A stretch of 53,351 nucleotides of DNA, the filler included, from Malassezia furfur (lineage: Eukaryota): NCBI GenBank assembly GCA_052055015.1. It is 2 parts of 2 records of this genome, joined end to end, with 100 filler letters (N's around TTAATTAATTAA, not from the genome) between each part and the next. Parts side by side here need not be neighbours in the genome. Positions count along the whole stretch, not along the records: positions 1 to 26,700 come from JBQJIT010000122.1; positions 26,801 to 53,351 come from JBQJIT010000123.1. One strand, written 5' to 3'. How positions within the stretch are numbered: position 1 is the first letter of the stretch; the number at the start of each line of letters is the position of its first letter. The translations under genes were made by a program, and so were the position numbers. Below the pieces are notes generated by a model, which saw only the letters and a program-made list of their open reading frames with translations, was not told where the DNA came from and searched no databases. Positions 7,872-51,176 of this stretch are shown piece after piece.

Positions 7872-8526
7872 CTACAAGAGAAGCACGGCGAGCAGCAAGA
7901 GAAACAGCAACTGAAAGCGTCAGCGTGTGTGCACGTACCGCGATGAGAATCCACACGCACCACCCGTTGAGGCGTGCGTAGGCATGCACCAGGAAGCGGT
8001 CCATGCGCTTGACCGCCGCCTGGAGCTGTGTCTGTGCGCGGTCGACGTCCGTGTCGAAGTCGTGAAGCATCACTGCATGCTCATCCGCCTCGGTGCCAAT
8101 CAGCTCCGCTTGCGATCGCAGCGTGGTGAGCGACGAGCCGATCTGGTTTAGCGCGCGGTCTTGGTTCGCGAGGAGCAGCTGCTGTTGCTCCTGCTCCCAC
8201 GCGAGCGACGTCGTGGGCCGCGCGTCCTCCGCACCCGCATCCGAGTGCAGCGCACGCTCCAGGCGGCTCAGCTCGCGCTCGCTCGTCTGCACAAACGCCT
8301 TGCGCCGCTCCAGCTCGGCGGGCGACACGCCGAAGCGCGACGCGCCGCCCTGCTCCACGACGCGCACCGTCTGCCGGAGCTCGGCGAGGTCCTGGCGCAG
8401 CGAGGTGAGGGTCTCACTGAACTCTGCGCGCGTGCTCCCGTCGCGCTGGAAGGTGTCGCGGAGCGTGCGTGCCGCGTGGAAGGAGCTCTGGATGTCCTGC
8501 GCGAGGCCTTCGTACGAATCGCGCAT
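7872..8526 (-). CDS. TLG1: t-SNARE, syntaxin-6/Tlg1-like
   Basis: ATG at 8526 (MRDSYEGLAQDIQ), Syntaxin-6 N-terminal-like FGVSPAELERRKAFV, SNARE motif QDRALNQIGSSLTTLRSQAELIGTEADEH. Removing a 28-nt intron (7911-7938) gives the C-terminal TM anchor WILIALLFLLLLAVLLL*. Confidence 0.88.
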
Positions 8527-8533
8527 CGTGGGC

Positions 8534-8549
8534 GCAGCCACGTGGCTGC
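8534..8549. promoter_or_regulatory. Perfect 16-bp palindrome GCAGCCACGTGGCTGC (CACGTG core) in the 33-bp TLG1/UGGT divergent spacer
   Basis: Read directly from the sequence; regulatory function is inferred. Confidence 0.5.
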
Positions 8550-8559
8550 TTCGTCGACC

Positions 8560-11500
8560 ATGCGCTGGGGGATCGGTGTGCTGAGCGCCGCGGCTGCGGT
8601 CGCGGCGTTCTGGGGCACACCCAAGCCAAAAGCCGAGCAGCAAGAGAGCCCGGTGAGCGTGCGCCTGCGGCACCCGTGGTACACGGGCGACGGACGCGCC
8701 GCGTACGTCGTCGAGATGCTCGAGGCCGCTGCGCACATCTGGCCGTCGGACGTCTTTGCGCTGGTTGAGCGCGTTGCGGCGCCCGACGGGCTGGCGCGCG
8801 TGGGCGACGTCAGCGAGGCGAGTGCCCAGGCGCTGTACGAGACGCTTGACGCAATCATCGGCGAGCACGCGCTCATTTCGGACGCCATCCCCGCACAGGA
8901 CGAATGGCGCGCAGCGGTTGCGATGCATTCGCAGGCCGCGCACGTCGCGTCCTACTACCAGCTCTTCCACACGAGCCGCGCACTGCAGGGCATTGATCTG
9001 GCGTGCCCGTACATCTACTTTGACCAGCGTGGCTACTGCAGCGCAGACGAGGCGCGCGCGGCGATCGAGCAGCGCCGCGGCGCCGCTGCGGTGAGCGCTT
9101 CGGGCGCGCCGCTGCCGAGCGACCACGTGTATGCGCCGCACACGTCCGTGGTGCATGCGCTGCCGACGGCCGTGCTGTACGCGGACCCGTTTGACCCCGA
9201 GCTTGCCGCGAAGCACACGTTGCTGATGCAGCTGGCGAACGATGCGCACGCGCCGATTCAGTACGTGCTGCGTTGGCGCCTGACGCCGCAGCGCCACGAC
9301 GACTCGATCGCGTACCTCTCTGGCTTTGGCGCCGCGCTGTACCTCAAAAAAGTTGACTACCTCGTGATCGACGACCGCAAAGTCGACGCGGCGCCGAATG
9401 CGACGCTCGATGCGGTGACGAAGGCGCTGCTCCAGCACGAGCGCGAGGCCTACCACACGCTGTCCTCGCAGCTGTACGCACCGGGCAAGGCGCCGCAGCA
9501 TGTGCAGGACGCCGTCGCGGCACAGAGCGCACTCAGCGAAGACGACCGTGCGCGGCTCGGCATCGGCGCCGCGCATGCGGTGCTTACCGCGACCGACCCG
9601 CTCGGGACGCTGATTGAAATGACGCACAACTTCCCCGCGCACGCTGCGGGCGTCGCAAAGTATGCGGCGCGCCTGCCTGCGGACCACACGGTGACCAAGG
9701 CCCTCGAGGAGCTGCAGGCGCGCGTGGTCGACGGGGGGATGTCGATGGCGTGGATGAACGGCAAGGCGCTCCCGCTGAACGAGTATGCGCCACTCGATGT
9801 GCTGGAGCGCGTGCGCCGCGAGCGTGAGCTCCTGACGCAGTTTTCCGCGCCCGAGATCGGCATCGATGCGCAGAATGCGCTGCTGATGCTCACCAACGCG
9901 CAGGTGAATGCGGCCTTCTTGCCCGGCGTGCCGTCGGCGGCGCGCTACGACGCGAGTGACCGGCTCGAGCAGGCCGCGCACCACGCGCCTGTGATTGCGT
10001 GGCGCAACGACTTGGCCGTCGACGGCGCTGAACGCTGGTCGACGAACCTGCGCGTGCTGCTGCAGCCGCGGTGGCCGGGGCAGCCCGTGTCGCTCGCGCA
10101 CAACCTGTTCCACCTGGTCGTGGTGGTGAACGTGACGGATGCCAGCGCGGTGAACCTGTGTGCGCAGATCGTTGCGTCGGGGCTGGAGGCGTACGGTCTG
10201 CACCTCGGCATCGTGCCGCTGCTCGATGCCTCGCCGAAGACCGAGGCGATGGCCGAGGTGCTGTGGCACGCGATGGACGCACTCTCCAACGACGACCTCA
10301 TTTCGTTCCTGCCCGAGTTTGCGGATGCGCCCGACGCGGCCGCCGCGCGCCGCGTCCTTGCGCCGTTCGTGCGCGACCAGCCGGCGAGCGCCGCCCAGGC
10401 GTTTGTCAAGAAGGGCGCACGGACGCCGGCGATGGAGGCGCGTATCGCCGCGACGCGCGCCTACCTGCAGCGCCTCGGCGTGCCGCTCGGCGGCGCCGGC
10501 GCCGCGTTCCTCAACGGCCAAGAGGTGTCGTACAGCGACGCGGTGCTCCAAGAGGCCATGGGCGTGCAGATGTCCCAGACGCGCCTCGCCGCCACCGACA
10601 TCCAAGCAGGGCGCATCGCCGACGACGCCGTGCCGACCTACTTCTACGACCTGCCCGACACGCGGCGCACGCGCTCGCGGCTCGTGTCGCGCCTCGCCGG
10701 CACGGAGCCCGCGTCGTTCGTCAACCTGCCCGACGTCGTTACGCAGCTCACCACCACCGCCGCCGCGCCGCACCTCGGCGTGCTGCGCGACTTTGTGTAC
10801 CACGACGAGCGCCCCGTGAATGTGTCGGTGCGCGTCGTGGCGGACGTCGATGCGCCCGAGGGCCGCGCGCTCGCCATGCACGCGCTCGATGCGCTGCAGC
10901 ACACGCCGTTCCGCGTGAGCTTTGTGCACGTGCCGAGCGCTGCATCGTCCGGCCGCGTGTCGCGCTTTTTGTACGCGGCCCAGACCAAAGGGGTGCTCAG
11001 CACGCTGGCGCCCGCGAAGCTGCGCGCCGCGCTGGCGGACGACACGCTCGACGCGCTCGCGCGCTCGCTTGCGCTCGACGTCGGCGCACACGCCGACGCC
11101 GCCGACGCGTTCTGGGCGACGGCGGCGGTGCCGTTTGCGGCGGCAGTGCGCGGCAGCGGTGTGCTGCTCAACGGCCGCGTGCTTGATGCGCTGGACGTGG
11201 ACGCGATGCACGCCGACGAGTTTGCGGCGATCGTCGACTGGGAGCAGCAGCAGCACGTCGCGCCGCTCCTCGACACGCTCGACATTGACGACGACGAGCG
11301 CGGCATGGCCGCCCAGGCGCTCGAGTTCGTCACGGCGCTGCTCGGCACGGCGTTCTCGGTGCCGAAGGGCGAAGAGGGCGTGTACGTGTCGCGCCCACCG
11401 ACGCGCATGGCGCTCGGCCCGTCGCTCGAGCAGTCCGCCGCGGCGTTCAGCGCCGGCGCCGCCGACGCCGACATCCACGTGGCGCTCATCCTCGACCCGC

Positions 11501-13216
11501 TGAGCGACCAGGCGCCGGGGCTCGCGGCGACGACACGCATGCTCACGGGGCTCGACGGCGTGCGCGTGACGGTGATCCTGAACCCGCGCATGCGCGAGAC
11601 GCGGCTGCCGTTGCAGCAGTTTACGCAGTACGACGCGCGTCTCCGCCCGCTGTTCGGCGACGCGGGGCGCGAGCAGCCGCCCGGCGTGGCATTTGCGCTG
11701 CTCCCGCCGCAGGCCGTGCTTACGATGCAGCTGCTCGCGCCGCGCACGCTCGTGGCGATGGCCGCCGAGGCCGTGTACGACCTGGACAACATCCGCCTCG
11801 CCGACCTGGCGCCGGCCGCGCGCGGCACCGGCGTCGAGGCCGTGTACGCGGTGCAGAGCGTGCTCGTCGAGGGCCACGTACGCAGCGACGACGGCGGCGT
11901 GCCGAGCGGCCTGCAGCTCCTGCTCACGACCGACGACGAGCGCGAGGTGCTCGACACGATCGTCATGGAAAACATGGGCTACTTCCAGTTCCGTGCGCAG
12001 CCCGGCGCGTGGCGCCTGGCCATCCGCCCCGGGCGGAGCGCGGACGTGTACGCGCTCGAGAGTGCGGGCGCCGCGGGATGGTCGAGCGCGCCGGTGGCGT
12101 CGGCGGGCAGTGCGCTCGTCGTCACGTCGCTGCTCGGCAAGCCGCTGTACCCCGTCGTGACCAAGCGCCCCGGGATGGAGTCGGCCGACCTGATCGCCGA
12201 GATGGACGCTCCGATCCCGACCGACGTCGCGACGTCGCGCCGCGGCGGGCACGCGGACATCAACGTGTTTACGCTCGCGAGCGGCCACCTGTACGAGCGC
12301 ATGACCTACATCATGATCCTCTCTGTGCTCGAGCACACGCAGCACTCGGTCAAATTCTGGTTCGTGGAAAACTTCCTCTCGCCGTCGTTCAAGGCGTTCA
12401 TCCCGCACCTCGCGGCCGCGTACGGTTTCCGCTACGAGATGATCACCTTTGCCTGGCCGCAGTGGCTGCGCGCCCAGACGGAGAAGCAGCGCACCATCTG
12501 GGCGTACAAGATTCTGTTCCTCGACGTGCTCTTCCCGCTCGACCTCGACCGCGTCATCTTTGTGGACGCGGACCAGATTGTGCGCGCGGATCTGTACGAG
12601 CTCGTGGAGATGGACTTGCACGGCGGTACGTGTGGACGACTCACCCAGCGCCGTATGGCTACCCCCCGATGGGCGACGACAGCGAGGACATGGACGGCTT
12701 CCGCTTCTGGAAGCAGGGCTACTGGCGCAGCTTTCTGCGTGGCCGGACGTACCACATCTCGGCGCTGTACGTCGTCGACCTGCACCGCTTCCGGGCGGTG
12801 GCCGCCGGTGACATCCTGCGGCGGCACTACCAGCGCCTCACGGCCGACAAAAACTCGCTCGCGAACCTCGACCAGGACCTGCCGAACCACTGTACGTCAC
12901 ACACACTCACCCAGTGCAACACGTCCTGCCCATCTACACTCTCGACCAGACCTGGCTGTGGTGCGAGACGTGGTGCTCGCACGACTGGCTGCCGCAGGCC
13001 AAGACCATCGACCTGTGCAGCAACCCCAAAACCAAGGAGCCCAAGCTCGACCGCGCGCGCCGCCAGATCCCTGAGTGGAACGTACTGGACGCGCAGGTCG
13101 CCGCGCTGGCCGCACGCGTCGCCCAGAACGCGAGTGCCGCGTCGGCTGCGGGCGCCGTGCCGACCGCCACCGATGCGGCCGAGCCTGCTGCGGAAACGGT
13201 GCACGACGAGCTGTAG
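8560..13216 (+). CDS. UGGT: UDP-glucose:glycoprotein glucosyltransferase (UGGT/Kre5, GT24)
   Basis: Signal-like N-terminus [16 protein letters not shown]. Motifs [70 protein letters not shown] and IDLCSNP, with C-terminal HDEL. Two 23-nt introns (12626-12648, 12892-12914) join the three frames. Confidence 0.96.
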
Positions 13217-13246
13217 GCTATGGTGCTATCACTGCTCCGTAGGGTA

Positions 13247-15299: not shown

Positions 15300-16492
15300 A
15301 TGCTACGACGGCTCGCGTGCGCGCTTGGCATGCCGAGAGGGGCGTGTGGCGCAGTGCGCTATTTGTCGTCGGGTCCGGCGCGCACTTCGGTCGCGACGCT
15401 ACCGCGGCGCACCGTGCTGGAGCTCGAGGGCCGCGACACGTTCAAGTTTCTCCAGGGCGCCATCACCAACAATGTCCAGCGGCTCGAAGAGGAACGGCGC
15501 GCAGGCGACGTCGCGCGCGACGTGTTCTATGCCGCATTCCTCAACCCGCAGGGGCGCATGGTTGCCGATGCCCTCTTGTATCACATGGTGCAAGCCAAGG
15601 ACCCTTCGGTGCTGATCGAGGTCGACTCGCAGATCCAAGGCGAGCTGGTCAAATTTCTCAAGCGCTTCAAACTCCGGTCCAAGTTTCGCATCACGGACGT
15701 CTCGGACGCATGGGATGTTCGGCAGGTGTGGGGACCGGGTGCTGAAGCGCTCATAGGTAACACACCCACCGACGACCCCCGCACCGTGGCCGTCCGCGAC
15801 GTGCGCGCACCGTCCATGGGCTGGCGTGTGCTGAGCCCTGCGGGCGAGACACGTACGTGGCCGACTCTCACACAGCCTCGTTCCTGGCATCGGCCGACCA
15901 GGTGACGCACGAAGAATACACCGTGCATCGCATGCTCTCGGGTGTGCCCGAGGGCGCCGACGAACTGGCCAGCGGCGCTAGTCTGCCGCTCGAGTGCTGT
16001 GTCGATTACATGAACGGAGGTACGTCGCGAGACTAACTCCAGTCGATTTCCACAAGGGCTGCTATATTGGCCAGGAGCTCACAGCCCGCACGCATTTCAC
16101 CGGGCTCATTCGCAAGCGGGTCATGCCCGTACTGCTGACGCGTCCTGACGAACCGTACGTTTCGCTTGGCCTGACCCAGCGCGCCGCAGCCGCCACAAGT
16201 CGATCCTGCTCGCATCACCGAGCTCCCCGCCCGTGGCGCAGATGTGCGGCTGACCTCCGCCAACCAGGCCGACACTGGCGGCAGGCCACGCCGCGCACGG
16301 TCCGCCGGCAAATTCCTGGGCGGTGTCCAGAACGTGGGTCTCGCTCTGCTCCGCCTCGAACAGGTGGCACAGACGCAAAGCGGCCCTTCCGCGCCTCAGC
16401 TACTGATCGAATGCGCGGACGGTGCCACCGCCCAGCTGCATGCATGGCGGCCAGAGTGGTGGCCTGCAGACACCGACGGCCACAGCGAATGA
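15300..16492 (+). CDS. IBA57: Mitochondrial Fe-S assembly factor Iba57/Caf17 (YgfZ family)
   Basis: Presequence-like start, [22 protein letters not shown], and [19 protein letters not shown] after splicing introns 15853-15875 (23 nt), 16020-16042 (23 nt) and 16155-16179 (25 nt). Confidence 0.93.
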
Positions 16493-16593: not shown

Positions 16594-18587
16594 ATGAACC
16601 CGGCAGCGCGCGAGGCGCCCTATGCGCCGATGCCAAGAGCGTCCGGCGAAGAGGTCGGCGTATGGCGCGATGTCGAGGGGTTCGAAGACCCCAACATCGC
16701 TGAGACGTCGTATGCGCCTCAGGACGCGCATCACGACAGCAGCGCGCACCCCTCACTCCATGCCGTCTTCAATGCGGTCCATGCGCGCTCCAAGAAGCGC
16801 GAAGGTGAGCACAAACACCTGACAGAGCACGGATTCGATGTGCCTGTGAAGGTGGCCCACCTGTTCAAGCGACCCGTCGTCCGGCAATGGCTATTCAAGG
16901 GCAATCTGTTCCGCGAGCAAGACGAGCGCATTCCGTCGCGGTTCGAGCTCTTCTTTGACCTGATGTTCGTCGGCATCGCCCACGTCGTTGCCGAGGGAGC
17001 TGCTGAAGATTACTCGGGCTTTAACGTGCTCAAATTCGTGATGGAATTTTTCCCTGCCTGGTCGGTGTGGTTTGACGTACGGACGTTCCTGAACGTGCAC
17101 GGCACTGACGACATCACCGAGCGCCTTGGCCTTCTTGGTGTCATGGTCCTACTTTCCGGCTACTCGGCGAACGCAGCGGCTCTGGAAATTTTCCACTGCG
17201 GACCGCCTCGGGAAGTGCTTGCGCGAGGTGGCCAATGCGCCGAAACGAGCGAAGCGCTGGCCAAGCGGGCGGCCGGCGAGAGTGTGAGCGATCGCATCGC
17301 CGAATACTACATTGGGGCAGGGTACTGGTTTGGAGAAGACTATCAAAGACTGATCCGCTCGGCCGTTGCATTCTACCTCATCTGGCGTTTGTTCCGGACG
17401 CTATTGTACGTTTACTATGGGTTTGCACTGCCCAAATTCCGCTCTGCCATGTGGACCAATGCCGTGGTCAAAGTGGTAACATCCGTCTTTTACTTTCCCA
17501 TCCTTGCGCTATGGGATCCTGGCATGATTGTTGGACTGATGTTCGCCGGTATGGCCGCCGAAACGCTCAATGGGTTTTTGGCCTTGGGACTATTATGGTT
17601 TCAGAACGAGATCCGTATACGGAGGGACAAGGAGCCACTGTATATCCCTGCATTATCCCAAGAGCATGCCATTGAGCGCATTGTCCTTTTCGTCCTGGTT
17701 GTTGTCGGTGAAATGATCATTAGCTCGACCTACGTTGCGACGGAACATACGTATGGCGCCTCGCAGCGGTTCGGGCGGTCGGCGCTGGCGATCATCTGCT
17801 CGTTCATGCTGATCTGGTTGTATTATGACGCGGACAGTTCGCGCACCTACCAGCATGCACTTCGGCGCAATGCACTCACTTCGCTTTTGTTCAATGTGAT
17901 CCATTTCCCCCTTTCTGCCGCCCTGATCCTTGCCGGTGCCTCGCTGTCAGAGCTGATCAAAGGCAAGGAAGAAGATGGCGGCCTGTTGTGGTACTTTAGC
18001 GGGAGCTGCGGCACAGTGCTTCTCTGCATCACCCTGCTGGGTCTACTCCACCGCAACTTGGACCGCAAAAACAGCACACTGCTGCCGCGCTGGATACGAC
18101 TCGGCGCACGCATTGTCGTGGGTGTACTAATTACATTACTCCCCATCATGCGCGATACCTGGCTTACACATGAATTCCTGGCGGTTTGTGCTGGGATGCT
18201 GGCCTCGCTGGTTATATTCGAGACCGTCTCCAAGGTCGGCGCGGTGGGCCGCCGCTTTGACGAAAAAATGCGGCGCTTGTGCGCCGTGCCAAGCTCACAA
18301 CCCTGTCGAGGCGCAACCCTGCGGAAATGCGCGCGATGAAGGAGGCCCGTGCACAGCTGCGCGCCATGGGCGTCGTGGAAAGCCCACCGCTACCCCACGT
18401 GGAGAAACCGACGCCCGAAGACGAACCGCTGCGTCCCCTGCGGTTGCGCCGCACCCTCTCTTGGCACCCCTACGACGGGTTGACCCTTGGCGAAACGGGC
18501 GAGGAAGATGTGGGGATGGAGGGCGAACTAGGCCACCTGGAGATGAAGGAGCTAAGTACCGGCCAGAGTTGGGCCTTCGCTGCATAA
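16594..18587 (+). CDS. LtrA (low temperature requirement A) family multi-pass membrane protein; apparent 1-nt frameshift near 18263-18268
   Basis: FELFFDLMFVG, ERIVLFVLVVVGE and WLYYD motifs with many TM helices. The ORF runs to 18339, but a plausible C-terminus continues in another frame to 18587. Confidence 0.8.
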
Positions 18588-18599
18588 TGTGTATATAAA

Positions 18600-21894: not shown

Positions 21895-21920
21895 TAGTTT
21901 ATAAGCAGAGCAACGGGAGC

Positions 21921-31217: not shown

Positions 31218-31370
31218 GGCTGCGTTGCGAAGACCGGTGCTGCAGCAGCCACGTGGTGATCGCATCTCAGGTGTGGAGGTACCGGACCGGGGCAGAAGAC
31301 GGCTCCCCCGGATTGCTCCGCACCGGTGCCACGAGGCTTCGACGCGAACCACTTCTTATTCCCCACCAGA

Positions 31371-33578: not shown

Positions 33579-33661
33579 AGACAGACCGACACCGTCTGTA
33601 CAAATCTGGTCGACTATCTGGGCAAATAATGGCAAGGTGCCTCGGAACGCATGCATTTGCC

Positions 33662-35282: not shown

Positions 35283-35404
35283 GGTAGCACGTAAGGAAAA
35301 GAAGCAATTCGTGCGCAGTGCACGTTCTCCTACGCATAAGGCTGCATGCAGCGTCAAGTGGAGGGCATTCGTTTCCAACCCCGCGCCGTGCAGTCCTGCT
35401 GGGG

Positions 35405-38029: not shown

Positions 38030-38053
38030 ACTTCTAGCGCAGGCCTCCACCTG

Positions 38054-39079: not shown

Positions 39080-39085
39080 GGTATA

Positions 39086-39933
39086 TCATCGTTGTTTGCG
39101 GACACTGCGGGGGATAAGCGACAGAACGCTCATTTGCTCGAGGACGTCTTGCAAAGCGGGTGTGGATGTTTCAGGTGAAGCACAGGAAGAGTCTTCTGCT
39201 GTGCTGGACAGAGAGTCCAAACTTCGTTTTCTCGTCAGGGCCGGGGGCGTCGGTGTCTCTGGAGAGGTTGCTGGTGTTGCTTGAGGCCGTTCTGGCAGTA
39301 CGGGAGGGTTGAAATTCCTCTCAATAATTTGGCCCTCGACCTGCATGCGCGATTGAGGAACATCTTCTTGCTCCGCCCTTTGGTCACTGCAGCACTTGTC
39401 TGTGAGTGTCCTCCGCCGCCACGTCTTGCGCACGAGACTCGCGCCATCCCCATAGAGCTCTCGAAGCCGTCCGATGCCATGGTTTGTCACGCTGAAGAAA
39501 AATTCTGGTGGGTAATGATGTGCAGCAATCAGATGTTGTCGGCGTAACTTCGGCGTGGCAAACACGCGGTCGCACTGGGGTTCAAAGCACCCGAACTGTG
39601 TCAGCTCGAAGGACGTACTACTTTCTCTCCACGCTCGCGACGCTGCGCCGTAAGACTGCTATGGCACTCATCCATATGCAGAGCGAGAAAATGTTCATTT
39701 GGGAACGTTTTTCCGCACCGGTGTGCGCGAGCGTCAACGAGCTGGGGGGCTGCCTGCTTAGAGTCGTGTGAATTTAGCGGCAGCGGAGCGAGACAGCGAA
39801 ACGCATGCTCGGTATAATAATGTGCCTCAAATGCCGCAATAGACGAGAACGGCATGCGCGGTTTGTGCCCCGGCAGGCTGCATTCGCTGACTTGCTTCGG
39901 CGACGCGTCCGCCTCGCGCCGTTTCCTCTCCAT
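39086..39933 (-). CDS. C2H2 zinc-finger protein (ZNF511-like)
   Basis: Three fingers: CSLPGH...HYYTEH, CGKTFPNEHFLALHMDECH, and FGCFEPQCDRVF...HLIAAHHYPPEFFF after the 23-nt intron 39596-39618. Confidence 0.85.
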
Positions 39934-40002
39934 GTTGCTCCACAGCAATGCAGGAAAGCCGGACCACGTGCTAGGACCCTGTGGAGTCTTCCTCGAGACA
40001 CG

Positions 40003-41739
40003 ATGGCGACCGCGCAGACGATTCCGACCAAGCCCTTCGAAGGCCAGAAGCCGGGTACTTCAGGACTGCGGAAGCGGTACGTGCAATGCTTATCCCAGTG
40101 TCAAGGTCTTTGAGCAGGAGAATTACACGGAGAACTTTGTGCAGTGCATCCTGGATGCCATTCCGGGCGGTGCGAAGGGTGCGACGCTGGTCGTGGGCGG
40201 TGACGGCCGCTACTTCTCCAAGCCGGCCGTGCAGAAGATTATCCGCATCTCGGCCGCGAACGGGGTGAAGAAGTTGATCATCGGCCAGAACGGCATCCTT
40301 TCGACGCCGGCCGCCTCGCACATCATCCGCCTGAACAAGGCGACGGGTGGTATTTTGCTCACGGCGAGCCACAACCCTGGTGGCCCGGACGCCGACTTTG
40401 GCATCAAGTACAACATGAGCAACGGTGGCCCCGCGCCTGAGGCAGTCACGAACGAGATTTACAAGCTCACCACCCAGATCCAGGAGTACAAAGTGGTCGA
40501 GGGTGCCGACGTTGACCTGTCCAAGATCGGCACCAGCACGTTTGGCTCGATGGAGGTGGAAGTGATCGACTCGGTGAAGGACTATGTCGAGTATCTCGCG
40601 AAGATCTTCGACTTCAACATGATCCGCGACTTCTTGTCGTCCGGTTCGTTTACGGTGCGCTTCGACGGCCTGAACGGTGTGACGGGACCGTATGCTAAGG
40701 CCCTGTTTGTCGAGCACTTCGGCCTGGACGAGTCCGCGGTGCAAAACTGCGTGCCGCTGCCTGACTTCGGTGGCGCGCACCCCGACCCGAACCTTACCTA
40801 CGCCAAGACGCTGGTCGACGCTGTGGAGAAAGAAGGGCTCAGCTTTGGCGCCGCGAGCGACGGCGACGGTGACCGCAACATGATTCTGGGCAAGAACGCA
40901 TTTGTGAACCCGAGTGACAGTGTCGCAATCATTGCGGACTGGGCGCAGAAGGCGATCCCCTACTTTGCCCAGGGCGGTATCCACGGCTTGGCCCGCAGTA
41001 TGCCGACGAGTGGTGCGATTGACCGTGTCGCCAAGGCGCGCAACTACGAGGTGTTCGAGGTGCCTACGGGGTGGAAGTTCTTTGGCAACCTCATGGATGC
41101 CGGCCGCCTGTCGATCTGCGGTGAGGAGTCGTTCGGCACGGGCTCGGACCAAATCCGTGAAAAGGACGGTCTTTGGGCCGTGGTCGGTACGTGAAGTTCT
41201 TTCTGACGCAGCGTGGCTCAGCATCATGGCCGCAGCCAACAAGGAGAAGCCCGGCACCAGTGTGGGAGATGTGCTGAACGCGCACTACACCAAGTACGGT
41301 CGCAACTTCTTCAGCCGCTACGACTACGAAGAGGTCGACAGTGACGGCGCCAAGAAGATGATGGAGCACCTTCGTGGGCGCTTTGCCGAATCCGACTTTG
41401 TTGGTAGTAAGCTCGGCGACTTCACGGTGGCTGAAGCCGACGACTTCAGCTACACGGACCCGATCGACAAGAGCGTGAGCAAGAACCAGGGTCTGTACGT
41501 GCTGTTCAGCGATGGCTCGCGTGTCATCTTCCGCCTGAGCGGCACGGGCAGTGCTGGCGCGACGATCCGTCTCTATGTCGAGAAGTACACGCAGGACCCT
41601 GCGGAGTACAAGGAGGACGTTCAAAAGGCGCTCATGCCGCTCATCAACGTCGCACTCCAGCTTAGTGAGCTGGAGAAGTTTACTGGCCGCTCGAAGCCCA
41701 CGGTGATTACGGTACGTGACGCGCACTGACCCTTAGTGA
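40003..41739 (+). CDS. PGM2: Phosphoglucomutase
   Basis: QKPGTSGLRKRV, TASHNPGG, DGDGDRNM, GEESFGTGS, FRLSGTGS and C-terminal PTVIT. Introns 40077-40098 (22), 41187-41211 (25) and 41712-41736 (25). Confidence 0.97.
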
Positions 41740-41767
41740 GCTTTTACTCAGCCACGCACGGCCCGGA

Positions 41768-42974
41768 ATGTTAACTCCGATGTTCCGTGGGCTCGTGTAC
41801 CGTAGCGTGCGGCCTACCGTAAACTGTCTCGCATCTTCCCTCTCGCGACGTACCTTTGCCCAAATGACGGTCCCTGAAAGCATGCGCGCGGTCCTGATTC
41901 GCGACAAGGTCGGTCCCTCGAGTGCGCTGTACATAGGCGAGGCACCCACCCCCAAGCTCACCGACACGCCACAGAGCGTGCTGGTGCAAGTGAAGGCATT
42001 CGGCCTGAACCGTATGGACCTGCTCCAGCGCGAGGGTAAGTATCCTATTCCTCCTGGAGCAAGCCCGATCCTGGGTGTCGAGTTCAGCGGGAACGTCGTC
42101 GATGTCGGCCAGGGTGTTAAGCACCTGGCCGTCGGGGACCCTGTATTTGGTCTCGCGACCGGTGGCGCCTACGCCGAGTATATCCGTGTCCCCGAGGAGA
42201 TGGTGCTCAAGAAACCAGAGGCAATCAATTGGGTGCAGGCTGCGAGTATGCCCGAAGGTGCGTGATGCGCGCTGATGCAGCGTTCTTGACCGCGTTCCAG
42301 GCACTCCGCGTGCTAGGCTCGTTCAAGGCAGGCGAGGACCTGCTGGTGCACGCAGGTGCGTCCGGTGTGGGCCTTGCGGCCATCCAGCTTGCCAAGGCAG
42401 AGGGTGCGCGTCGCATCTACGTCACTGCTGGGTCACCCGAGAAGATTGCATTCTGCAAGCAGCTTGGAGCCACAGACGGATTCAACTACAAAGAGGGCAG
42501 CTGGAAGGACAAGCTGATGGAGGCGACCAACGGCGAGGGTGTGGACGTCATTATGGACTTTGTGGGCGCGCCATACTTTGAAGACAACTTGGCATCCCTG
42601 AAGCGCGACGGGCGTCTGACGATGCAGGGCTTTATGGGTGGCGCCAAGGTCAAGGAGGTAAACCTGGGCACGCTCCTGACGAAACGCTTGCGTATTGAGG
42701 GCAGCACGCTGCGGAGCCGCTCGCTGGAGTACCAATCGAAACTGGTGCAAGACTTTTTCCACAGCGGCGGCCTGGACTCAATTGTGCGGGGTGTGGAGAA
42801 CCACGACGAAGGCACGCGCCTGGTCGTGTGGGGGACGTTTGACTGGAACGAGATCGCCAAGGCGCACGACGCGATGCAAGCGAACAAGAGTACGTCGTTT
42901 ACCCACTCACACAGACACGGGCAAGAGTGCGTGGACGTTGCGAGGCTTACGCAGTTGTTGCTACCATTTCGTGA
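41768..42974 (+). CDS. NADPH:quinone oxidoreductase, PIG3-like MDR family, with probable mitochondrial presequence
   Basis: KAFGLNRMD, GVEFSG, GGAYAEY, HAGASGVGLAAIQLA, GSTLRSR and NTGKIV. Introns 42258-42280 (23), 42890-42914 (25) and 42927-42954 (28). Confidence 0.92.
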
Positions 42975-42986
42975 AACTAGAATACA

Positions 42987-43668
42987 TTAGCCCGAGAACT
43001 CGGCCCGCCGTGGCACCGACGAGGCAGTCACCGGCTCCTTTTTCACCTCGCCGGAGGCCAAACTTGCATCGTAGCGCTCGCGGATCGAGGCAAACACCTG
43101 GTCGAGATTTGCGATGGCGTCGCGGAACGCGTCGACCGCCGACACGGTGTGCTCTGCGGTTAGTCCGTTCCCAAACGCGAGGAGAATTCAGTAGGAACAA
43201 TTGGAAATGCGTATAACTGCCAGTCCATCGCCATAGCTCGGCTTCGGAAAGGTGTCATCCCAACACCAATTGGCCTAGACACTCACCATTCATCTGGACA
43301 CGCATGTGGATTTTGCTCTCGGATGGATGGGGAATGCTGCGTGTGAGCGGGCGGCGACAACCTACGTATAACCGCAAAACTCCACGCGTGGGCTGCCGTT
43401 AGCATGCTCTTGGTATACATTGCCCCTCAGAAACGAAGAATTCCAAGTTTGTATTCCCCCATGACGCTTGCAAAGCAGGTCTCGGGACACAATGGGTATA
43501 ATCTTCGGGGCCTGAGTCGACGTACTCTTTCATCAGCATGTACCGCAGCGCATTGCCGAGGGTATGATCTTCATCCTGGATACAGAACGTGACGGCGGTG
43601 AGCGCAGCGTCGTGTCCAGGAAGCAGGGTGATCTTCCCATGCACGGCCGAGGCGTCCAGCTCGTCCAT
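42987..43668 (-). CDS. RPC19: RNA polymerase I/III shared subunit AC19
   Basis: [31 protein letters not shown] after splicing introns 43393-43525 (133), 43337-43365 (29) and 43154-43286 (133); TAA at 42987-42989. Confidence 0.94.
43185..43265 (-). ncRNA. Intronic box C/D snoRNA, snR41/SNORD62-like (guide for the 18S Am541 equivalent)
   Basis: C-like GGGAUGA (43261-43255), D' CCGA, C' GCGAUGG and D CUGA (43191-43188). Guide UCCAAUUGUUCCU is complementary to the conserved 18S AGGAACAAUUGGA (recalled from memory). Ends approximate. Confidence 0.82.
43422..43512 (-). ncRNA. Intronic box C/D snoRNA, snR57-like (guide for the 18S Gm1572 equivalent)
   Basis: D box CUGA (43430-43427) preceded by ACUUGGAAUUCUUCGUUU, complementary (1 GU, 1 mismatch) to 18S AACGAGGAAUUCCUAGU (recalled from memory). 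Degenerate C box CCGAAGA and a GCCCC/GGGGC terminal stem. Ends approximate. Confidence 0.78.
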
Positions 43669-43774
43669 CGTGGTGCAGGCGCAAAATTTGCACGGCACTC
43701 GGCACGGACGCGCATGTGCTGACAAAGCGTGCCGGTTGGCCCCCAGGCACGGCCACGGTCTCACCGCCGCCGCC

Positions 43775-45554
43775 ATGTCGTGGAGACTGGGCAAGAGTAT
43801 GTGGGGAGACATTGACGCAGAATTGCGCGAAAGCTCGAGCTTTGCATTTGGGCCCCCGAGGGTTCCGTCGCCCGTCGACCGCTCCACGACGCCAAAACCC
43901 AACGCCCCAGCACCGAGTACGAAGGAGGCCTCGACGCCGAAGCCTGCCCAGGCGCGGGGGGACGATGCTGCGCAATCGGACCTACTCGCGGTGAGTGTCG
44001 TGACTGCGCGCGGTCTGTCGCTTCCCTCTGGAAAGGTGCTCGCAGAAAAATCGGGTGATGCGCTACAGAGCAAATCGCTGCGCGAGCGCCAAACCTTCCT
44101 ACCCTACGTGGTGTTGGAATTCGACAAAAACGAGGTGCTGATCCTTGCCTCGAGTGGTGACCTATCAGCGCCGCAGTGGCAGTTCACCGCCTACTTGTAC
44201 GTGCCGTGGCTGACGCAGTGACATCTCGCGCAAGACCGAAGTCAGCCTACACGTCTACCTGCGCGGCGAGGCCGTTGCACCGGCAGCCGCGACCAGTTTC
44301 GGCATCATGGGCATGTTCCGCAGCTCGACACCCAAAGCGGAGGACCAGCATGGGGGACAGCGGAAGCCGATGCGGGACCTAATGGGGGAGAACGACGTAT
44401 ATCTGGGAACGGCGAAGCTGGTGCCGTCGTTTGAAAGCGCGCGCGCCATGGACACCTGGCTGCCAGTCTCGGGCGGTACGGGCCAGATCCATGTGCAGCT
44501 CGCATTCAAGCCACAGCAAGGTCATTCGTTGTCGATTGAGTCGTTTGAGCTGCTCAAAGTCATCGGCAAAGGCAGCTTCGGCAAGGTGATGCAGGTTCGC
44601 AAGCGCGACACAAACCGGATTTACGCACTGAAAATCATTCGCAAGGCGCACATTATCTCACGCTCCGAGGTGACGCACACGCTGGCCGAGCGTACGGTGC
44701 TTGCCCAGGTCAACAGCCCATTCATTGTGCCGCTCAAGTTCTCCTTCCAGAGCCCCGACAAACTGTATTTGGGCCTCGCGTTTGTCAATGGTGGCGAGCT
44801 CTTCCATCACCTCCAGCGAGAGGGGCACTTCTCCGAGGAGCGCGCTCGCTTCTACACAGCCGAGCTCTTTTGTGCACTCGAGCATCTGCACGACTTCAAC
44901 GTGATCTACCGCGACCTGAAACCGGAAAACATCCTGCTCGATTACACCGGGCACATCGCCCTGTGCGACTTTGGTCTGTGCAAACTGAACATGGGCGACA
45001 AGGAGACGACGCACACCTTCTGCGGTACGCCCGAGTACCTCGCGCCGGAACTGCTGCTGGGTCGTGGTTACACCAAGTCTGTCGATTGGTGGACGCTTGG
45101 AGTGCTGCTTTACGAGATGCTCACCGGCCTTCCGCCGTTCTATTCGGAGGACGTCAGCGAGATGTACCGCAAAATTCTCCACGACCCGCTCACATTCCCC
45201 CCCGAGGTGCAGCCTGACGCACGCGACTTGCTGACGCGTCTGCTGCACCGCGAGGCAAGCGAGCGCCTCGGCTATGGACCACACGGCGCTGCCGAGATTA
45301 AAAGCCATCCATTCTTTACCAAGCATATCGACTGGGCACTGCTCCTTGCGAAAAAAGTGCAGCCGCCGTACAAGCCCGGGGTACAGTCGACGCTGGACAC
45401 GTCCAACTTCGACCCGGAGTTTACGAGCGAGCCTGCCCAAGACAGTGTGGTGGACGAGAGCCATCTGATCAGCGCTGCAAACCAAGAACAGTTCTCGGGC
45501 TTCAGCTACAATGCTGGTGCCGAGAGCGTGAGCGTGGGCAACTCCTGGCAATGA
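43775..45554 (+). CDS. YPK1: AGC Ser/Thr kinase Ypk1/Gad8
   Basis: C2-like LPYVVLEFDKNE, IGKGSFGKV, YRDLKPEN, DFGLCK, TFCGTPEYLAPE and hydrophobic motif FSGFSY; 22-nt intron 44197-44218. Confidence 0.95.
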
Positions 45555-45700
45555 CTATGGGAAGAGTGTACGATATAGGGCAAGGTTGTAGATGTGCAAT
45601 TTTTTTCAACGCGCTTTTGTGGGGTACGGCGCAGGAATTGTCGACCTCACCACACCGTGCCATTGATCTTGCCTTTTATTTGCGGGGCCCTCTGTCGAGC

Positions 45701-46157
45701 ATGATTACCGCGCCGTATTTGATGTGGGTCATGGCCACATTGGCATGTTTGCTGGGTGTGCGGACACAGGACACTCCCGTCACGTCGCCGACCAATTCGT
45801 ACTATACGCCCGCCCAGACCTACACACCGATCACCACCCTGCCAAGTGGGCAAAGCGGCACAGTGGTCGTCGTGACGGGCGTCGGTCCGAGTGAGACGCC
45901 GGATAGCTACTCGTGGAACTACACTGCGGCGCTCTCGACGCTCGCGCCGACTGTAAACTCTGCGCTTTCCTCGTCGCTCGCCAAGAGCATTGACCTGCGG
46001 TCGAGCGCGAGCAATTTGGAGCCCGACCCCAAGAACCTCCAGGTATGTCTTGCATCGTCGTCTCACACAGACGGTGGGTGGTGCTGTGACCATCGGTATC
46101 CAATGGACGTTGACGGTGCTCGCCGCCGCCTTGACCATAGCCGCTATTCAGCTCTGA
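45701..46157 (+). CDS. Small Ser/Thr-rich secreted, probably GPI-anchored surface protein (142 aa)
   Basis: Signal-like MITAPYLMWVMATLACLLGVRT and an S/T/P-rich body. After the 28-nt intron 46043-46070 comes a hydrophobic C-terminus TVGGAVTIGIQWTLTVLAAALTIAAIQL*. Confidence 0.72.
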
Positions 46158-46203
46158 TCTGTACTACTAGCCGCATTCATCTACTTTGCGCATCTGGGAC
46201 AGT

Positions 46204-47662
46204 CTACGCAAACGAGGTCTGTGGAGAAGACTGGGCCGTGGAAGACGAGGCACCCTGTGCGGCTGCGGCCGCGCCCGGCACCGCCTTGCCCGAGGGTGCC
46301 AGCTGCGTTGGCCCCGTCGAGAAGGTCTGCGCGGAGGGCTTTTCCTCGAGCATTTCGTACATCAGCACAAAGCTCTTGGACACCTTTTCCCAGGACCCCG
46401 GGTCGAAGAAGACATAGGTTCCGCGCTCGTACGTTGGAGTCTTTTGCAGCGGCTCCGTGTTCTGCTCCTTGGTGAGCCAGAGGTGCAGGCCCTTGTGGTA
46501 GCGCCAATTGCGCGCATACAACTCCTGCGCTGCAACTTCTTGCAGCACATCCCGTGGCGTGGAATAGAAGATGAAAAAGAGCGTTTCGTCGCTGAAACTC
46601 GCGATCTTAGTCTGCGCCGGAGGCGGTGGCTGGACGTTGTAGCAGCTCGGCAGCTGGTAAGCCGGCTCGACCTGCATCGACGCCAGCGTCGGGTCCTGCG
46701 ACCAGGGCGTCACAAAGGACGCAGCGAGCGAGTCGAGCGAGTCGAGGTTCATGCCGAGCGTCTGCAGATTATTGCCCATCGTCAGCATCGACATGTCCGG
46801 ATCCTGCGTCTTGATTAGGCTCACAAGCCCCACAAGCCCAAACCGGTCCGCAGGCGATGCCAGCACCTGGTGGATTGGCCGCTGCACCGCGTCGTTGTTC
46901 GCCACAAACGCCGCATGCCCAGGCACGTCGTGCGCCGCCATCTCGAGCGACTTGGCCTCGGCGTCCGTGGGATGCTCCATGCGTATCCCTGCGCCACCTT
47001 CACCCGAGGACCGTGCCATGCCTAACCGATTCAGCGCCGCAGGCTGCTGCGCGCCGTACGACTGCATCCACGCGGACGGCGCCGCTGGCTGGTTCAGGGT
47101 GCTCGGCGACTGCGGGCCGTGCAGGTTGTGTTTCCGGGCAAGGTCCTGCGCCTGCATCAGCCACGTGTGTCTACGCACGAGATTTTGTCGTTGCTGTTGC
47201 TGCTGCTCCTGTTGCCAAGCGACCGGCGCTGCGTGGTCTGGGTGAGCAGAAGAAGACGTACCCATAGGGTGCATGCTGGTCGACACACCGTGCGCGCCCC
47301 GCGGCTCCGACGCCGCGGGTTGTGCGCGGTTTAGCGCGGGAAACTCGTCGTGCGTAAAGGGTGCGCCGCGCGAAAGCATCCCCATCATCCCCATGTTCAT
47401 CGAGGAGTTGGAAAGACCCGCGGCGGCCTGTGTCGCGTACGGCGAGAACAGGTTGTTGTTCGCGCCGCTGGAGCTGACTTGTGCGCCCTGCGATCCAAGT
47501 GCAGGGAAGTCGTTCAAGTCCAGATTCGCCGAGTTGGAGGCGCCGGAAGCAAAGCCGGGATGGCTGCCGGCCATGCCGCCGGCATTCGCGAAGCCCATCG
47601 AGGGGCCTGCACTGTTGGAAGAGGGACGTCTGCGTGAGTTGCGCCACCTACCCTGAATTCAT
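46204..47662 (-). CDS. NOT2: CCR4-NOT subunit Not2 (Cdc36)
   Basis: DFPAL motifs, DRFGLVGL, FSDETLFFIFYSTPRDVLQ and NWRYHK (NOT box). An 11-nt first exon, a 22-nt intron 47630-47651, and a probable in-frame 27-nt intron 47152-47178. Confidence 0.93.
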
Positions 47663-47874: not shown

Positions 47875-49448
47875 ATGGCGTCTGGGCCCGCGAAAGAGGA
47901 GATTGCCGAGATCTTCAAATCGTTCAAGAATGCGCACAAAGCCAACAAGGTGTGCTTTGACTGCGGCGCAAAAAACCCGACGTGGGCCAGCGCGACGTTC
48001 GCCGTGTACATCTGCCTCGACTGCTCCTCTGTTCATCGCAACATGGGCGTGCACATCACCTTTGTCCGGTCCACGAACCTCGACTCGTGGACGTGGCAGC
48101 AGCTGCGCCTCATGAAGGTGGGCGGAAACGGCGCGGCGAGCGACTTCTTCGCCGCTCACGGCGGCAGTGTCTTGCTCGCCCCGTCGACGCAGGGCAAGGA
48201 GAAATACACCTCGCAGGTCGCTGCACTCTACAAGGAGGAGCTGCACCGCAGGGCGCTCCAGGACGCCGCAGGGCTCGGCCTCAATGCGCCGTTCGCGATC
48301 CCGGGCGTGGCTCCGGCGGGCGGCGCCAAGGGCGCCAAGGGCGCCGACCTCGACTTCTTTGACGAATGGGACACTCCGGCGACGTCGAGCGCCACGGCCC
48401 CGGTGGCCGCGGACACCGTGCCTGTGACGACCGATGCCGCATCGCCGAGCGTCTCATCGCCGGCGCTCACGCAGACGTCGATCCCCGCACCGCCCATCAC
48501 AGAGACACCGCTCGCCCAGCCGGCCGCAGTCCAGGCGCCTCGGCCCGTCACGTCGGCGGCGCTGCGCGGCGCCGGCGTAGGTGCCGGCCGCCGTCCAGGC
48601 GCACTGGGTGCGGTGCGCGCAACCAACAGCCCGTCGCTAGGTGCGAAACCTGGAAAGCTCGGTCTCGGTGTGCGCAAGACGGGCGCAGCGGCCAACTTTG
48701 ACTTTGATGCGGCCGAGCGCCGCGTCAAGGAGGAGCAGGCGCAGGCGGCCGAGGCGGCGCGTGCTGCGCGTGAGGCCCAAGTGGCTGCGGATGCGGCTGC
48801 CGAGGAGGCAGCGCAGCGCGCAGCGACGGCGCGTGCGCAGGAGCCTGCAGCTGCGCCCGCCCCGGCGCCGCGTGTTGAGAAGCCGTCACCCAAGGCGAAC
48901 CCCAACGTGGACCGACTGGGGATGGGCTTCTCGCGCCTGGGCCTAGCGCAGGCGCGCAACCAGGCGGCGCTGAAGAAGGCGGCAGATGCCAAGAAGGAGA
49001 GCTTGGCAGGTACGTGGTGTGTGACTCACGTTGCAGATGCGGAAGAGACCAACTATGCACGAACCAAGTTTGCGTCGCAGAAGTGTGCGTGCTTTGTACG
49101 CTGACCGCAGCCATTTCGTCGGACCAGTATTTCCAGCGCGGTGGGTACGACCCGAACCTGTCCTCCGAGGCCCAAACGCGCCTCGCGAACTTCCAGGGCC
49201 AGACGTCGATCTCGTCGAACCAGTACTTGTGCGTAGCAATGCACTGACGCAGCGGCCGGGACGACGACGACGAGGCGGCGGACGAGATGCCCGAGCGCGA
49301 CGACTTTGCCGACCTCGAGGCGAGTGCGAAGGCGTACTACCGCAAGTTCATGTCGAACCCCGACGTGCAACAGGGCATCGAGTCGTTCCGCTCGGGCGCG
49401 CTGAAGCTGTCGCAGTATCTCGAGGACCTGAGCCGCAACGGTGCTTAG
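47875..49448 (+). CDS. GLO3: ArfGAP Glo3 (ArfGAP2/3)
   Basis: [13 protein letters not shown]...[20 protein letters not shown], plus Glo3 motifs SISSDQYF and SISSNQYFG. Introns 49010-49036 (27), 49085-49110 (26) and 49229-49252 (24). Confidence 0.94.
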
Positions 49449-49503
49449 GTACACACCTCCATATAATGAAGAGTCATCGTAGCCACGACACTCCACCCGA
49501 AGC

Positions 49504-50758
49504 ATGTCGACCTTCGGAACGTTCTTCCGCGTGTCTACATTTGGCGAATCGCACTGCAAGGCAGTGGGATGCATCGTCGATGGTATCCCGCCAGGTATGG
49601 CCGTCGAGGAGCAGGATATCCAGCGGCAGCTCACCCGCCGCCGCCCGGGCCAGAGCAACTTGACCACGCCGGTACGTGTTTCCCCCGCTGACGCAGCGCG
49701 ATGAGAAAGACAAAGTCGAGATCCTCTCTGGCACAGAGCGCAACGTTACTCTCGGTACGCCAGTGGCGATGATGGTGCGCAACCAGGACCAGCGCCCCCA
49801 CGACTACACGGACGAGACGCTCGACAACTTCCCCCGCCCGAGCCATGCGGATTATACCTACCTCGAGAAATACGGGGTGAAGGCAAGCAGCGGTGGCGGG
49901 CGCAGCAGCGCTCGTGAGACAATCGGCCGTGTGGCAGCCGGTGCTCTCGCGGAAAAGTTCCTCAAGGAGGCCTACGGCTTGGAGATTGTTGCCTTTGTGT
50001 CGTCGGTCGGCCAGGTGGCTGTTCCGCAGTACCCTACCACGTCGGCGATCGACGACGTCGATGCCTCCGAGCTCCCCATGAGCCAGGAGTTTCTTGAGCT
50101 GCTCAACAGCGTGACGCGTGAGCAGGTCGACCGGGAAGACGTGCGGTGTCCGGACGCCGACGTCGCGGAAAAGATGCGCCAGCGGATCATGGCCGCCAAG
50201 GCGAAGAACGACTCAATCGGCGGCACGGTGACCTGTGTACTGCGCAACGTCCCTGTCGGGTTGGGCGAGCCGACGTTTGACAAGCTCGAGGCTATTCTGG
50301 CGCACGCCATGATGAGCATCCCGGCCACCAAGGGCTTCGAGATCGGCTCCGGTTTCCGTGGCACGCAGGTGCCGGGCAGCCTGCACAACGACCCTTTCGT
50401 GGCCAAGGCTGATGGCACGCTCGGGACCAAGACCAACTGGAGTGGCGGAATCCAGGGCGGAATCTCCAACGGAGAACACATCTACTTCCGTGTCGCCTTC
50501 AAGCCTCCAGCGACGATCTCACAAGAGCAGCATACGACCCAGTACGATGGCAAGGAGGGCGTGCTCAGCACGCGTGGACGCCACGACCCGTGCGTCGTTC
50601 CGCGCGCCATCCCCATCGTGGAGTCTATGGCGGCCATCGCCATCATGGATGCAGTGCTCGCTCAGGATGCACGCGCAAAATCGGCAAGCCAGCTGAACCC
50701 TGCCGCCGTCGCTGCGCTCCCTCGCAGCATGAAAAAGCACAACCACCCTTCGATGTAA
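49504..50758 (+). CDS. ARO2: Chorismate synthase
   Basis: [41 protein letters not shown] and GRHDPCV; 25-nt intron 49672-49696. Confidence 0.98.
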
Positions 50759-50822
50759 AATCTAGATGGATGCAGCAATGAATAGAGGGACTACCGTTGG
50801 TATATGTGGGGGGAATAACTCC

Positions 50823-51176
50823 TCACTTTTTCTTGCCCTTCATAGTTGCGCGCCGTCCCTCACCTGGAAAGTGTCAGTTTTCCTAGCACAACATACCCTT
50901 CTTAGGCGGGCCCTTTCCGAGCATCTTCTTACGCTCCACGTCCGCGACGCGCTGCTTCTCCTCCGGAAACATGAGGCGACCAATGCCCGGCACAGCATCG
51001 CGGACTGTCCGGAGGTTCAGTTGAGGGGGGTAGTAGCGCAGCATCGCCGCACCCACCAGCGATTTGCGCAGGTATTTCGCACCAGTACGCACATTGGTCG
51101 GGTTGTATGTGGTACCGAACACTTTGCTCCGCAGCGCTTGGAGTGCAGCGAGTGACTTGGAAGGCGGCCCTGCCAT
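50823..51176 (-). CDS. RSM27: Mitochondrial ribosomal small-subunit protein mS33/Rsm27
   Basis: VFGTTYNPTNVRTGAKYLR, YYPP, and GKGPPKKGEGRRA after the 33-nt intron 50864-50896. Confidence 0.92.

Follow-up and report, generated by a model that had tools for sequence, protein, structure and literature searches.

What limits how short a spliceosomal intron can become is an open question, and the known ultra-short cases come mostly from parasites and ciliates with degenerate splicing signals. Here we describe the introns of a 53,351-nucleotide (nt) stretch of Malassezia furfur DNA (GenBank assembly GCA_052055015.1; the whole stretch is hereafter the window) and of the genome to which it belongs. 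They are probably ordinary major-spliceosome (U2-type) introns whose shrinkage in Malassezia has stopped at a limit that two distances determine. The closest described system is M. sympodialis, of the same genus, for which about 5350 introns with a mean length of 30 nt were curated, 99% of them with RNA support (Zhu et al. 2017, PMC5389616). The accessible text of that study gives no minimum length, branch geometry or splicing-factor analysis. It does report that automated annotation overestimates intron lengths (means of 65-79 nt versus the curated 30 nt), in line with the suggestion of a sequence-only reading of the window that gene predictors miss such introns. A published review of Malassezia, in its accessible part, mentions ‘very short introns’, and a 2026 list of sub-30-nt exceptions names, in the part available, ciliates, microsporidia, dicyemids and myxobolids, not Malassezia (PMC13644364). 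The shortness of Malassezia introns is therefore already known. A 21-nt floor, its two-distance geometry and the decay of U2AF2 were not found in print: the Malassezia literature within our search, which mostly excluded subscription papers, held no account of such a floor, of branch geometry or of a U2AF2 change.

Among more distant systems (all described here from the accessible parts of the papers cited), the 15-16-nt introns of Stentor coeruleus likewise have the branch A sixth from the intron end and canonical U2 and U6 (Nuadthaisong et al. 2022, PMC9505925). Stentor has its own branch A position (+10/+11), a shorter donor, a weak branch consensus and a fixed length, whereas in Malassezia the donor-to-branch loop is at least 16 nt, the signals are strong and the lengths tail to ~40 nt. 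Paramecium, the Bigelowiella nucleomorph, dicyemids and myxobolids also have thousands of 20-30-nt introns, but with a donor reduced to GT(A) and little branch signature (Irimia and Roy 2008, PMC2483917; Hadjez et al. 2026, PMC13644364). Degenerate signals have been described for intron-rich short-intron lineages as such (Irimia and Roy 2008, PMC2483917). The Malassezia genome departs from this pattern: the GTACGT donor is common, the branch motif is clear and lengths divisible by three (3n) are not depleted at 21 nt. Moreover, myxozoan U2AF is described as conserved (PMC13644364), whereas the RRMs of Malassezia U2AF2 are decayed. Yarrowia, Trichomonas, Giardia and Encephalitozoon share with Malassezia the lack of a 3' pyrimidine tract and a branch site just before the AG (PMC2483917). 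These fused-site organisms are intron-poor, and Yarrowia introns are long, whereas Malassezia has about one intron per gene, and these are ultra-short. Ustilago maydis, of the same subphylum, has the CTRAY branch in common with Malassezia, but its introns are long (median 95 nt and mean 127 nt by our reading of the table) and peak in poly-T at a distance of 15-40 nt from the acceptor (PMC2483917).

The curated set of window introns, compiled from gene models, comprises 46 introns, all with GT...AG termini (46/46). The length counts of the 45 introns of the sequence-only reading were reproduced, as were its two AAG ends, and one further 24-mer was added; the coordinates and strands of the four 22-nt introns that it had singled out (19874-19895, 21292-21313, 35034-35055 and 40077-40098) proved exact. 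Eleven introns are 22 nt long, nine 23, three 24, eight 25, one 26, two 27, three 28 and two 29, followed by single introns of 33, 34 and 37 nt, two of 35 nt and two of 133 nt. Donors are GTACGT (27), GTGCGT (7), GTATGT (6) and others (6); the 3' ends are CAG (42), TAG (2) and AAG (2). Scanning the window for the motif produced 63 matches, some of them nested or false, versus ~15 expected from Markov shuffles (~0.5 per length class). The source assembly (13.68 Mb, 1856 contigs) contains homeologous blocks with 85-88% alignment identity, and 22 of the 46 introns have a homeolog; GT, branch and AG are conserved in 22/22, and four differ by one base. For most of the 46, removal restores a reading frame, and it yields conserved proteins (NCS-1 of 190 residues, UGGT, chorismate synthase and 5'-nucleotidase). 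The intron at 26907-26928 is supported by the motif alone, and two stopless 27-mers by motif and homeolog. As the sequence-only reading had it, the window introns of 22-24 nt have their branch A between +16 and +19, and there is no pyrimidine tract: T makes up 553 of 2496 bases from +7 to the branch motif, and TTTT occurs in 9/248 frame-repairing introns. U12-type introns have an RTATCCT donor and a TCCTTAAC branch; no U12-type signals appeared in the donor census, which returned GTACGT, GTGCGT and GTATGT. Judged by signals, frames and homeologs, these are real U2-type spliceosomal introns, and the claim of ultra-short introns with a fused branch/3' site in a Malassezia is supported.

To define the lower length limit, we used a sample of 841,922 bp (6% of the assembly) consisting of the largest contigs, homeolog partners and the window. 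It contains 470 GTA-N-GT matches with a median length of 24 nt: 2 at 16 nt, 4 at 17 nt, 0 each at 18, 19 and 20 nt, and then 63, 74, 65, 45, 51 and 26 at 21-26 nt. With homeolog contigs dropped, 51, 59 and 53 of 359 matches fall at 21-23 nt. Genome-wide, the GTACGT short-intron pattern (up to 26 nt) gave 2210 matches and its reversed version 34; a hand count of the first 100 matches listed found 31 with a length of 21 nt. A hard floor, as proposed from the window, thus exists, but its value is 21 nt and not 22 nt. We give next to no credence to the literal 22-nt floor: its basis is that the window contains eleven 22-nt introns and none of 21 nt (P about 0.002 given the 16% share of 21-mers elsewhere), and against it stand the 63 matches at 21 nt, ten of which have homeologs of 21-22 nt, 15/48 of which have an in-frame stop and several of which split invariant motifs. 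The missing 21-mers are partly explained by composition, since 21-mers are rarer in low-GC surroundings (5/67) than above 63% GC (23/109); the GC content of the window is 60%.

Several features argue that the sample candidates, and the 21-mers among them, are introns. Removal restores the reading frame for 194 of 246 non-3n candidates (chance, 1/3). For 105 candidates with a homeolog, GT/AG is conserved in 103; internal gaps occur in 25/105 pairs versus 2 in 48 flanking bases, and in the 23 pairs that differ in length neither member falls below 21 nt. When the 21-mer in a homeodomain is read through, exactly 7 residues are inserted between W and F (54 residues on 47 profile positions), and removal of the cytidine deaminase 21-mer makes profile positions 49 and 51 contiguous. 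A 21-mer in SNF2 represents a comparable insertion, while a case in MutS is ambiguous. On this evidence the 21-mers are introns (for example, G000:C1:63651-63671). Below 21 nt the picture changes. The pattern for introns of 20 nt or less has 173 matches genome-wide versus 53 in the control; sixteen were inspected, of which 8 lay inside longer canonical introns and 2 were exonic by our reading. With a relaxed donor, frame repair was below chance at 14-20 nt (46/182), compared with 156/240 at 22, 23 and 25 nt.

It might be argued that splicing of the shortest elements is inefficient or that they frequently stay in the transcript, the stopless 21-mers being partly read as seven residues. Consistent with this, 33/48 21-mers are stopless and stops are not enriched (15 versus 14.0 expected; over all 3n lengths 44/104 versus 33.3, a mild excess), and microsporidian short introns splice at ~25% (cited in the accessible part of PMC13644364). 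However, 21-mers sit in essential invariant motifs, RNA supports nearly all curated M. sympodialis introns, as mentioned above, and 21-mers show no shortage compared with 22-mers, suggesting that retention is rare. We regard frequent retention as very unlikely. The Paramecium-type combination of degenerate signals and a disfavoured, stop-enriched 3n class was not found (63 matches at 21 nt, 74 at 22 nt). Avoidance of 3n lengths is described for most ciliates (PMC13685798, accessible part); unlike there, stopless 21-mers are common and not depleted in Malassezia, pointing to splicing that is efficient or to surveillance that is weak.

What is actually limited is the donor-to-branch distance, not total length. 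Where the branch motif is single and unambiguous, 81 introns have their branch A at +16 and 80 at +17, and none in the sample has it at +13 to +15 with spacers of 1-3 nt; the ten matches with a branch A at +15 or earlier are mostly short or long-spacer outliers. The most frequent 3' tail is A-C-N-Y-A-G. All 61 unambiguous 21-mers combine a branch at +16 with the shortest tail, and a longer spacer occurs in 0/61, whereas a longer tail is present in 32% of the 23-25-mers (P about 6e-11, counting homeolog copies). Likewise, 22-mers with spacer 3 are absent from the sample. The floor of 21 nt is thus the sum of two minima, a branch at +16 and a 5-nt tail. A floor on total length, or a plain sum of the motifs, would agree with the clustering of lengths just above the limit. 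However, the motifs alone need only 15 nt, and under such a floor 21-mers with a branch at +15 and a longer tail should occur, as should the spacer-3 22-mers; we consider this explanation highly improbable. Other signals are strong throughout: GTACGT starts 118/248 frame-repairing introns, the branch matrix of the sample represents a motif complementary to U2 GUAGUA, and G is found at +7 in 45/67 branch-16 introns (odds ratio 3.4, p 1.6e-5).

The layout of these introns, which we read as shrunken U2-type introns, begins with GTAYGT and a linker that is never shorter than 4 nt. The U2-pairing motif nRCTNAY follows, its branch A no earlier than +16, and C-N-YAG ends the intron. The branch A is thus sixth from the intron end, giving 16 + 5 = 21 nt. 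The U2 pairing register starts five bases before the branch A, which leaves +7 to +10 as the free linker. Since a uridine tract would not fit in, the 3' end would be set by pairing at the branch site (SF1/U2) and by an AG five bases further along, and U2AF2 may persist mainly as a protein adaptor. Sixteen nucleotides could be the shortest loop that holds the six-base 5' site on U1/U6 together with the branch motif on U2, and the G excess at +7 among the most compact introns might contribute a further pair with U1 or U6.

The sequence-only reading took the short mode as a sign of modified spliceosome geometry, and for this the small nuclear RNAs (snRNAs) and proteins give a divided answer. The U2 snRNA was found and carries GTAGTA, so that its branch-pairing core is canonical, and both copies of U6 have canonical ACAGAGA and AGC; on the other side, the RNA-binding domains of U2AF2 are decayed, which is the sole trans-acting change detected. 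A spliceosome rebuilt further, in which the U1 snRNP, SF3b or branching factors (Cwc25, Isy1, Cwc2) have been lost or reshaped and set the floor, is in our view unlikely. In its favour, U1 snRNA was not found in partial searches (Rfam, with 41/173 candidates scored, and two 5'-end patterns), and the dominant donor GTACGT has a C at +4, which canonical U1 would not pair in the usual register. The U6 internal loop has 6 nt, RRM1 is degenerate in U2AF2 and possibly in RBM39, and altered branching factors are reported for Stentor (PMC9505925, accessible part). Against it, the U2 and U6 cores are canonical, the loop here exceeds that of Stentor by 6 nt, and with 1856 contigs and partial searches the failure to find U1 does not speak for its loss. 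Matches to ATACGTACCTG, considered as U1 candidates, were mostly donors on the opposite strand, and U1-70K was not among 20 RRM loci examined. Most of the other RRM proteins examined look canonical by eye; an RBM39-like protein (L140:1021-2274, +) has an RRM1 seemingly degenerate at RNP1. In the U6 copy at L111:1501-1605 (-), the internal stem-loop has the 6-nt loop GCAGUA; in yeast and human this loop has 5 nt.

U2AF2, present in two copies in the genome, was compared with its homologs using the best 120 of 642, RRM1 counts being restricted to sequences with full coverage. The three aromatics of RRM1 are all kept in 99/99 non-Malassezia fungi, in 0/7 named Malassezia and in 0/13 unnamed Malassezia-like sequences. 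Those of RRM2 are kept in 101/101, 1/7 and 3/13, respectively, and the residue equivalent to F304 is aromatic in 20/20 Malassezia and Malassezia-like proteins. The basic beta-4 pair corresponding to human K225/R227 is complete in 100/101 others and in 0/20 Malassezia and Malassezia-like proteins; in human U2AF2 both residues contact uridine RNA (PMC4786784, accessible part). Identity to the outside consensus in Malassezia versus others is 0.38 versus 0.59 for RRM1, 0.51 versus 0.77 for RRM2 and 0.66 versus 0.62 for the UHM. General fast evolution is excluded because the protein-binding UHM is no more diverged than in smuts, whose U2AF2 has canonical RRMs. The alignment thus shows a retained UHM together with loss of the predicted RNA-contact residues in RRM1 and, partly, in RRM2. 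Schwartz and colleagues are said to have noted in 2008, in general terms, that U2AF65 co-evolves with the tract in fungi. A stronger proposal would be that U2AF2 has no RNA binding at all and acts as a pure SF1/SF3B1 adaptor, perhaps with a changed or missing U1, the 16-nt loop being the steric minimum for both helices; this we hold as tentative and rather doubtful.

A metagenome scan yielded five Malassezia-like U2AF2 loci among 80. In two of them (L167 and L171; DNA identity 70-76%) about ten intron positions are common by their flanks, with lengths of 23-29 nt. A high-GC Malassezia-like species (L168/L169) has six introns of 37-47 nt, and one intron position measures 23, 37 and 54 nt in three species. 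The introns at common positions are therefore ancestral to these species, with lengths that vary within the genus. U2AF2 decay appears to accompany short, tract-less introns generally, rather than the 21-nt floor specifically. Another 22 metagenome loci, from other fungi, show an intron peak at 45-55 nt and, being redundant and noisy, carry little weight.

A number of points weigh against shrunken U2-type introns with a two-distance limit. The introns are known here from DNA alone, and branch points were assigned by motif rather than from lariat reads. Because the scans require donor and branch motifs, they overlook introns that carry other signals, and even the relaxed-donor scan demanded G at +5. 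The frame was not restored in 52/246 non-3n candidates, and 6 of the 16 inspected matches of 20 nt or less fit neither the nested nor the exonic reading. A perfect 17-nt intron-like element, whose branch A is at +12, has the same sequence in both subgenomes (G000:C2:48843-48859, -, and C63:14898-14914, +; L031 and L032). It lies in a 5' leader behind a pyrimidine-rich run, 12 nt before an ATG, and could be a genuine exception or else the last part of a longer intron. With a branch A at +10 in Stentor, 16 nt is no universal steric limit, and the limit must be lineage-specific. As for U2AF2, the 13 unnamed sequences were assigned to Malassezia by score rank, the putative loss of RNA binding is deduced from the sequences, and a decayed U2AF2 (P0117) is also found in the species with 37-47-nt introns, so decay alone does not explain the 21-nt floor.

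The two-distance rule and the genus-wide U2AF2 decay are the more interesting result, compared with the exact value of the floor. The limit in Malassezia is sharp and expressed in two measurable distances, the U2AF2 decay is domain-specific, and the organism is a culturable yeast with reviewed genetic tools. If the adaptor-only U2AF2 and the 16-nt steric minimum were true, a tractable fungus would offer a direct test of the intron-size limit. On the practical side, stopless introns of 21, 24 and 27 nt are invisible as frameshifts and so corrupt the protein models of a yeast common on skin unless the minimum intron length is set to 21 nt or less.

The source of the DNA is fungal. The closest named homologs of the 5'-nucleotidase exon in the window are from M. 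sympodialis, M. pachydermatis and M. cuniculi. U2AF2 shares 89% identity with that of M. obtusa and 87% with that of M. yamatoensis, and glucose-6-phosphate isomerase is present in two copies (100% and 94%); an exact search with this isomerase gave no match. These data fit a two-subgenome Malassezia of the furfur clade, the doubled copies matching the published M. furfur hybrids, which have doubled genomes with a parental divergence of ~10% (PMC9040865, accessible part). For window positions 31000-46340, with a lower GC content of 55-60%, a second copy was not found in the assembly; loss of heterozygosity or a collapsed region is possible.

In the following account of individual window introns, pairs such as 751/406 give the open reading frame (ORF) length in amino acids (aa) when spliced and when the intron is retained, and ‘h’ marks a homeolog. 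The 28-nt intron of a small membrane-anchored gene (7911-7938, -) was placed by motif, with GT/AG and branch conserved in the homeolog. UGGT (+) has two 23-nt introns (12626-12648, h; 12892-12914, h), across which the PF18404 match continues from profile positions 1-122 to 124-203 and then to 205-267. The GCV_T-domain gene (+), which we take to be IBA57-like, has introns of 23 nt (15853-15875; 373/201; h 22 nt), 23 nt (16020-16042; 373/237; h) and 25 nt (16155-16179; spliced ORF; h 26 nt). Four belong to the 5'-nucleotidase gene (-): 22 nt (19874-19895; tblastn frame change with 10/10 homologs; 751/406; h), 24 nt (20327-20350; in-frame stop if retained; 751/550; h 25 nt), 23 nt (20570-20592; tblastn frame change; h) and 23 nt with donor GTAGGC (20887-20909; 751/657; h). 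The HMG-box gene (+) has one of 22 nt (21292-21313; 280/189; h), and the KHDC4-like gene (+; ORF of 363 aa) has introns of 35 nt (24393-24427, h) and 22 nt (24622-24643, h). A Gly/Met-rich gene (+) truncated by the assembly gap has a 25-nt intron (26346-26370; motif score; h). Positions 26701-26800 (44 N, TTAATTAATTAA, 44 N) are an artificial spacer between the two parts, not biology; past it, the probable 22-nt intron at a gene 3' end (26907-26928, +) is the weakest listed.

The NCS-1/frequenin gene (+) has introns of 34 nt (28369-28402), 22 nt (28706-28727) and 22 nt (28851-28872; 190/168), exon 2 corresponding to residues 23-122 of the 190-aa PDB NCS-1 chains. Electron transfer flavoprotein (ETF) beta (+; spliced ORF of 273 aa) has four, of 35 nt (31435-31469), 29 nt with an AAG end (31607-31635; PF01012 6-33 then 36-159), 25 nt (32048-32072) and 37 nt (32228-32264). 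These are followed by a mitochondrial carrier (25 nt, 32907-32931, +; 315/156), ALG11 (22 nt, 35034-35055, -; branch A +16; 513/441; PF15924 begins at profile position 12 directly after), a VPS34-like PI3-kinase (+; 23 nt, 35470-35492, 859/770; 22 nt with an AAG end, 35844-35865, PF00792 4-81 then 85-136) and a gene with no Pfam match (23 nt, 39596-39618, -; 188/86). Phosphoglucomutase (+; ORF of 554 aa) has introns of 22 nt (40077-40098), 25 nt (41187-41211; Pfam match) and 25 nt (41712-41736), the last adjoining the stop codon, which alone makes up the final coding exon. In the zinc-type dehydrogenase family gene (+; ORF of 376 aa), a 23-nt intron (42258-42280; Pfam in both exons) is followed by one of 25 nt (42890-42914), a 12-nt micro-exon and one of 28 nt (42927-42954). 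The RNA polymerase Rpb11/AC19-like gene (-; spliced ORF of 128 aa; PF13656) has introns of 133 nt (43154-43286), 29 nt (43337-43365) and 133 nt (43393-43525). Further introns lie in an AGC-type kinase (22 nt, 44197-44218, +; 585/415) and a secreted Ser/Thr-rich protein (28 nt, 46043-46070, +; 142/49). NOT2 (-) has stopless 3n introns of 27 nt (47152-47178; h; frame test uninformative) and 24 nt (47238-47261; h 23 nt, a frameshift if exonic) and one of 22 nt (47630-47651; 478/447; h). ArfGAP (+) has a stopless 3n intron of 27 nt (49010-49036, h), one of 26 nt (49085-49110; 498/400; h) and one of 24 nt with an in-frame stop if retained (49229-49252; 498/439; h). The last two are in chorismate synthase (25 nt, 49672-49696, +; PF01264 1-47 then 49-327; h) and MRP-S33 (33 nt, 50864-50896, -; 106/97; h). 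Motif matches at 2145-2168, 5423-5445, 5776-5813, 9261-9291, 20056-20083, 21891-21924 and 38285-38308 were dropped as lying in or antisense to coding exons or as unsupported, and a frame-neutral match at 43797-43820 was dropped as uncertain.

The two 133-nt introns are the sole long ones, both in one RNA polymerase subunit gene, around micro-exons of 27 and 50 nt. Rfam gave no small nucleolar RNA (snoRNA) match in them, and their folding is no better than that of shuffles (z -0.5 and -0.7). The intron at 43154-43286 has a C-box-like GGATGA, plus a CTGA behind a stretch seemingly antisense to 18S rRNA, which we presume to be akin to that of snR41; a snoRNA host is possible. Elsewhere in the window, an LtrA-family membrane protein is encoded at 16600-18590 (+), where the ORF apparently shifts frame near 18300 with no evident intron, and positions 2-7838 (+) are occupied by PDR-type ABC transporter genes in tandem, with a DNA likeness of about 71-74%.

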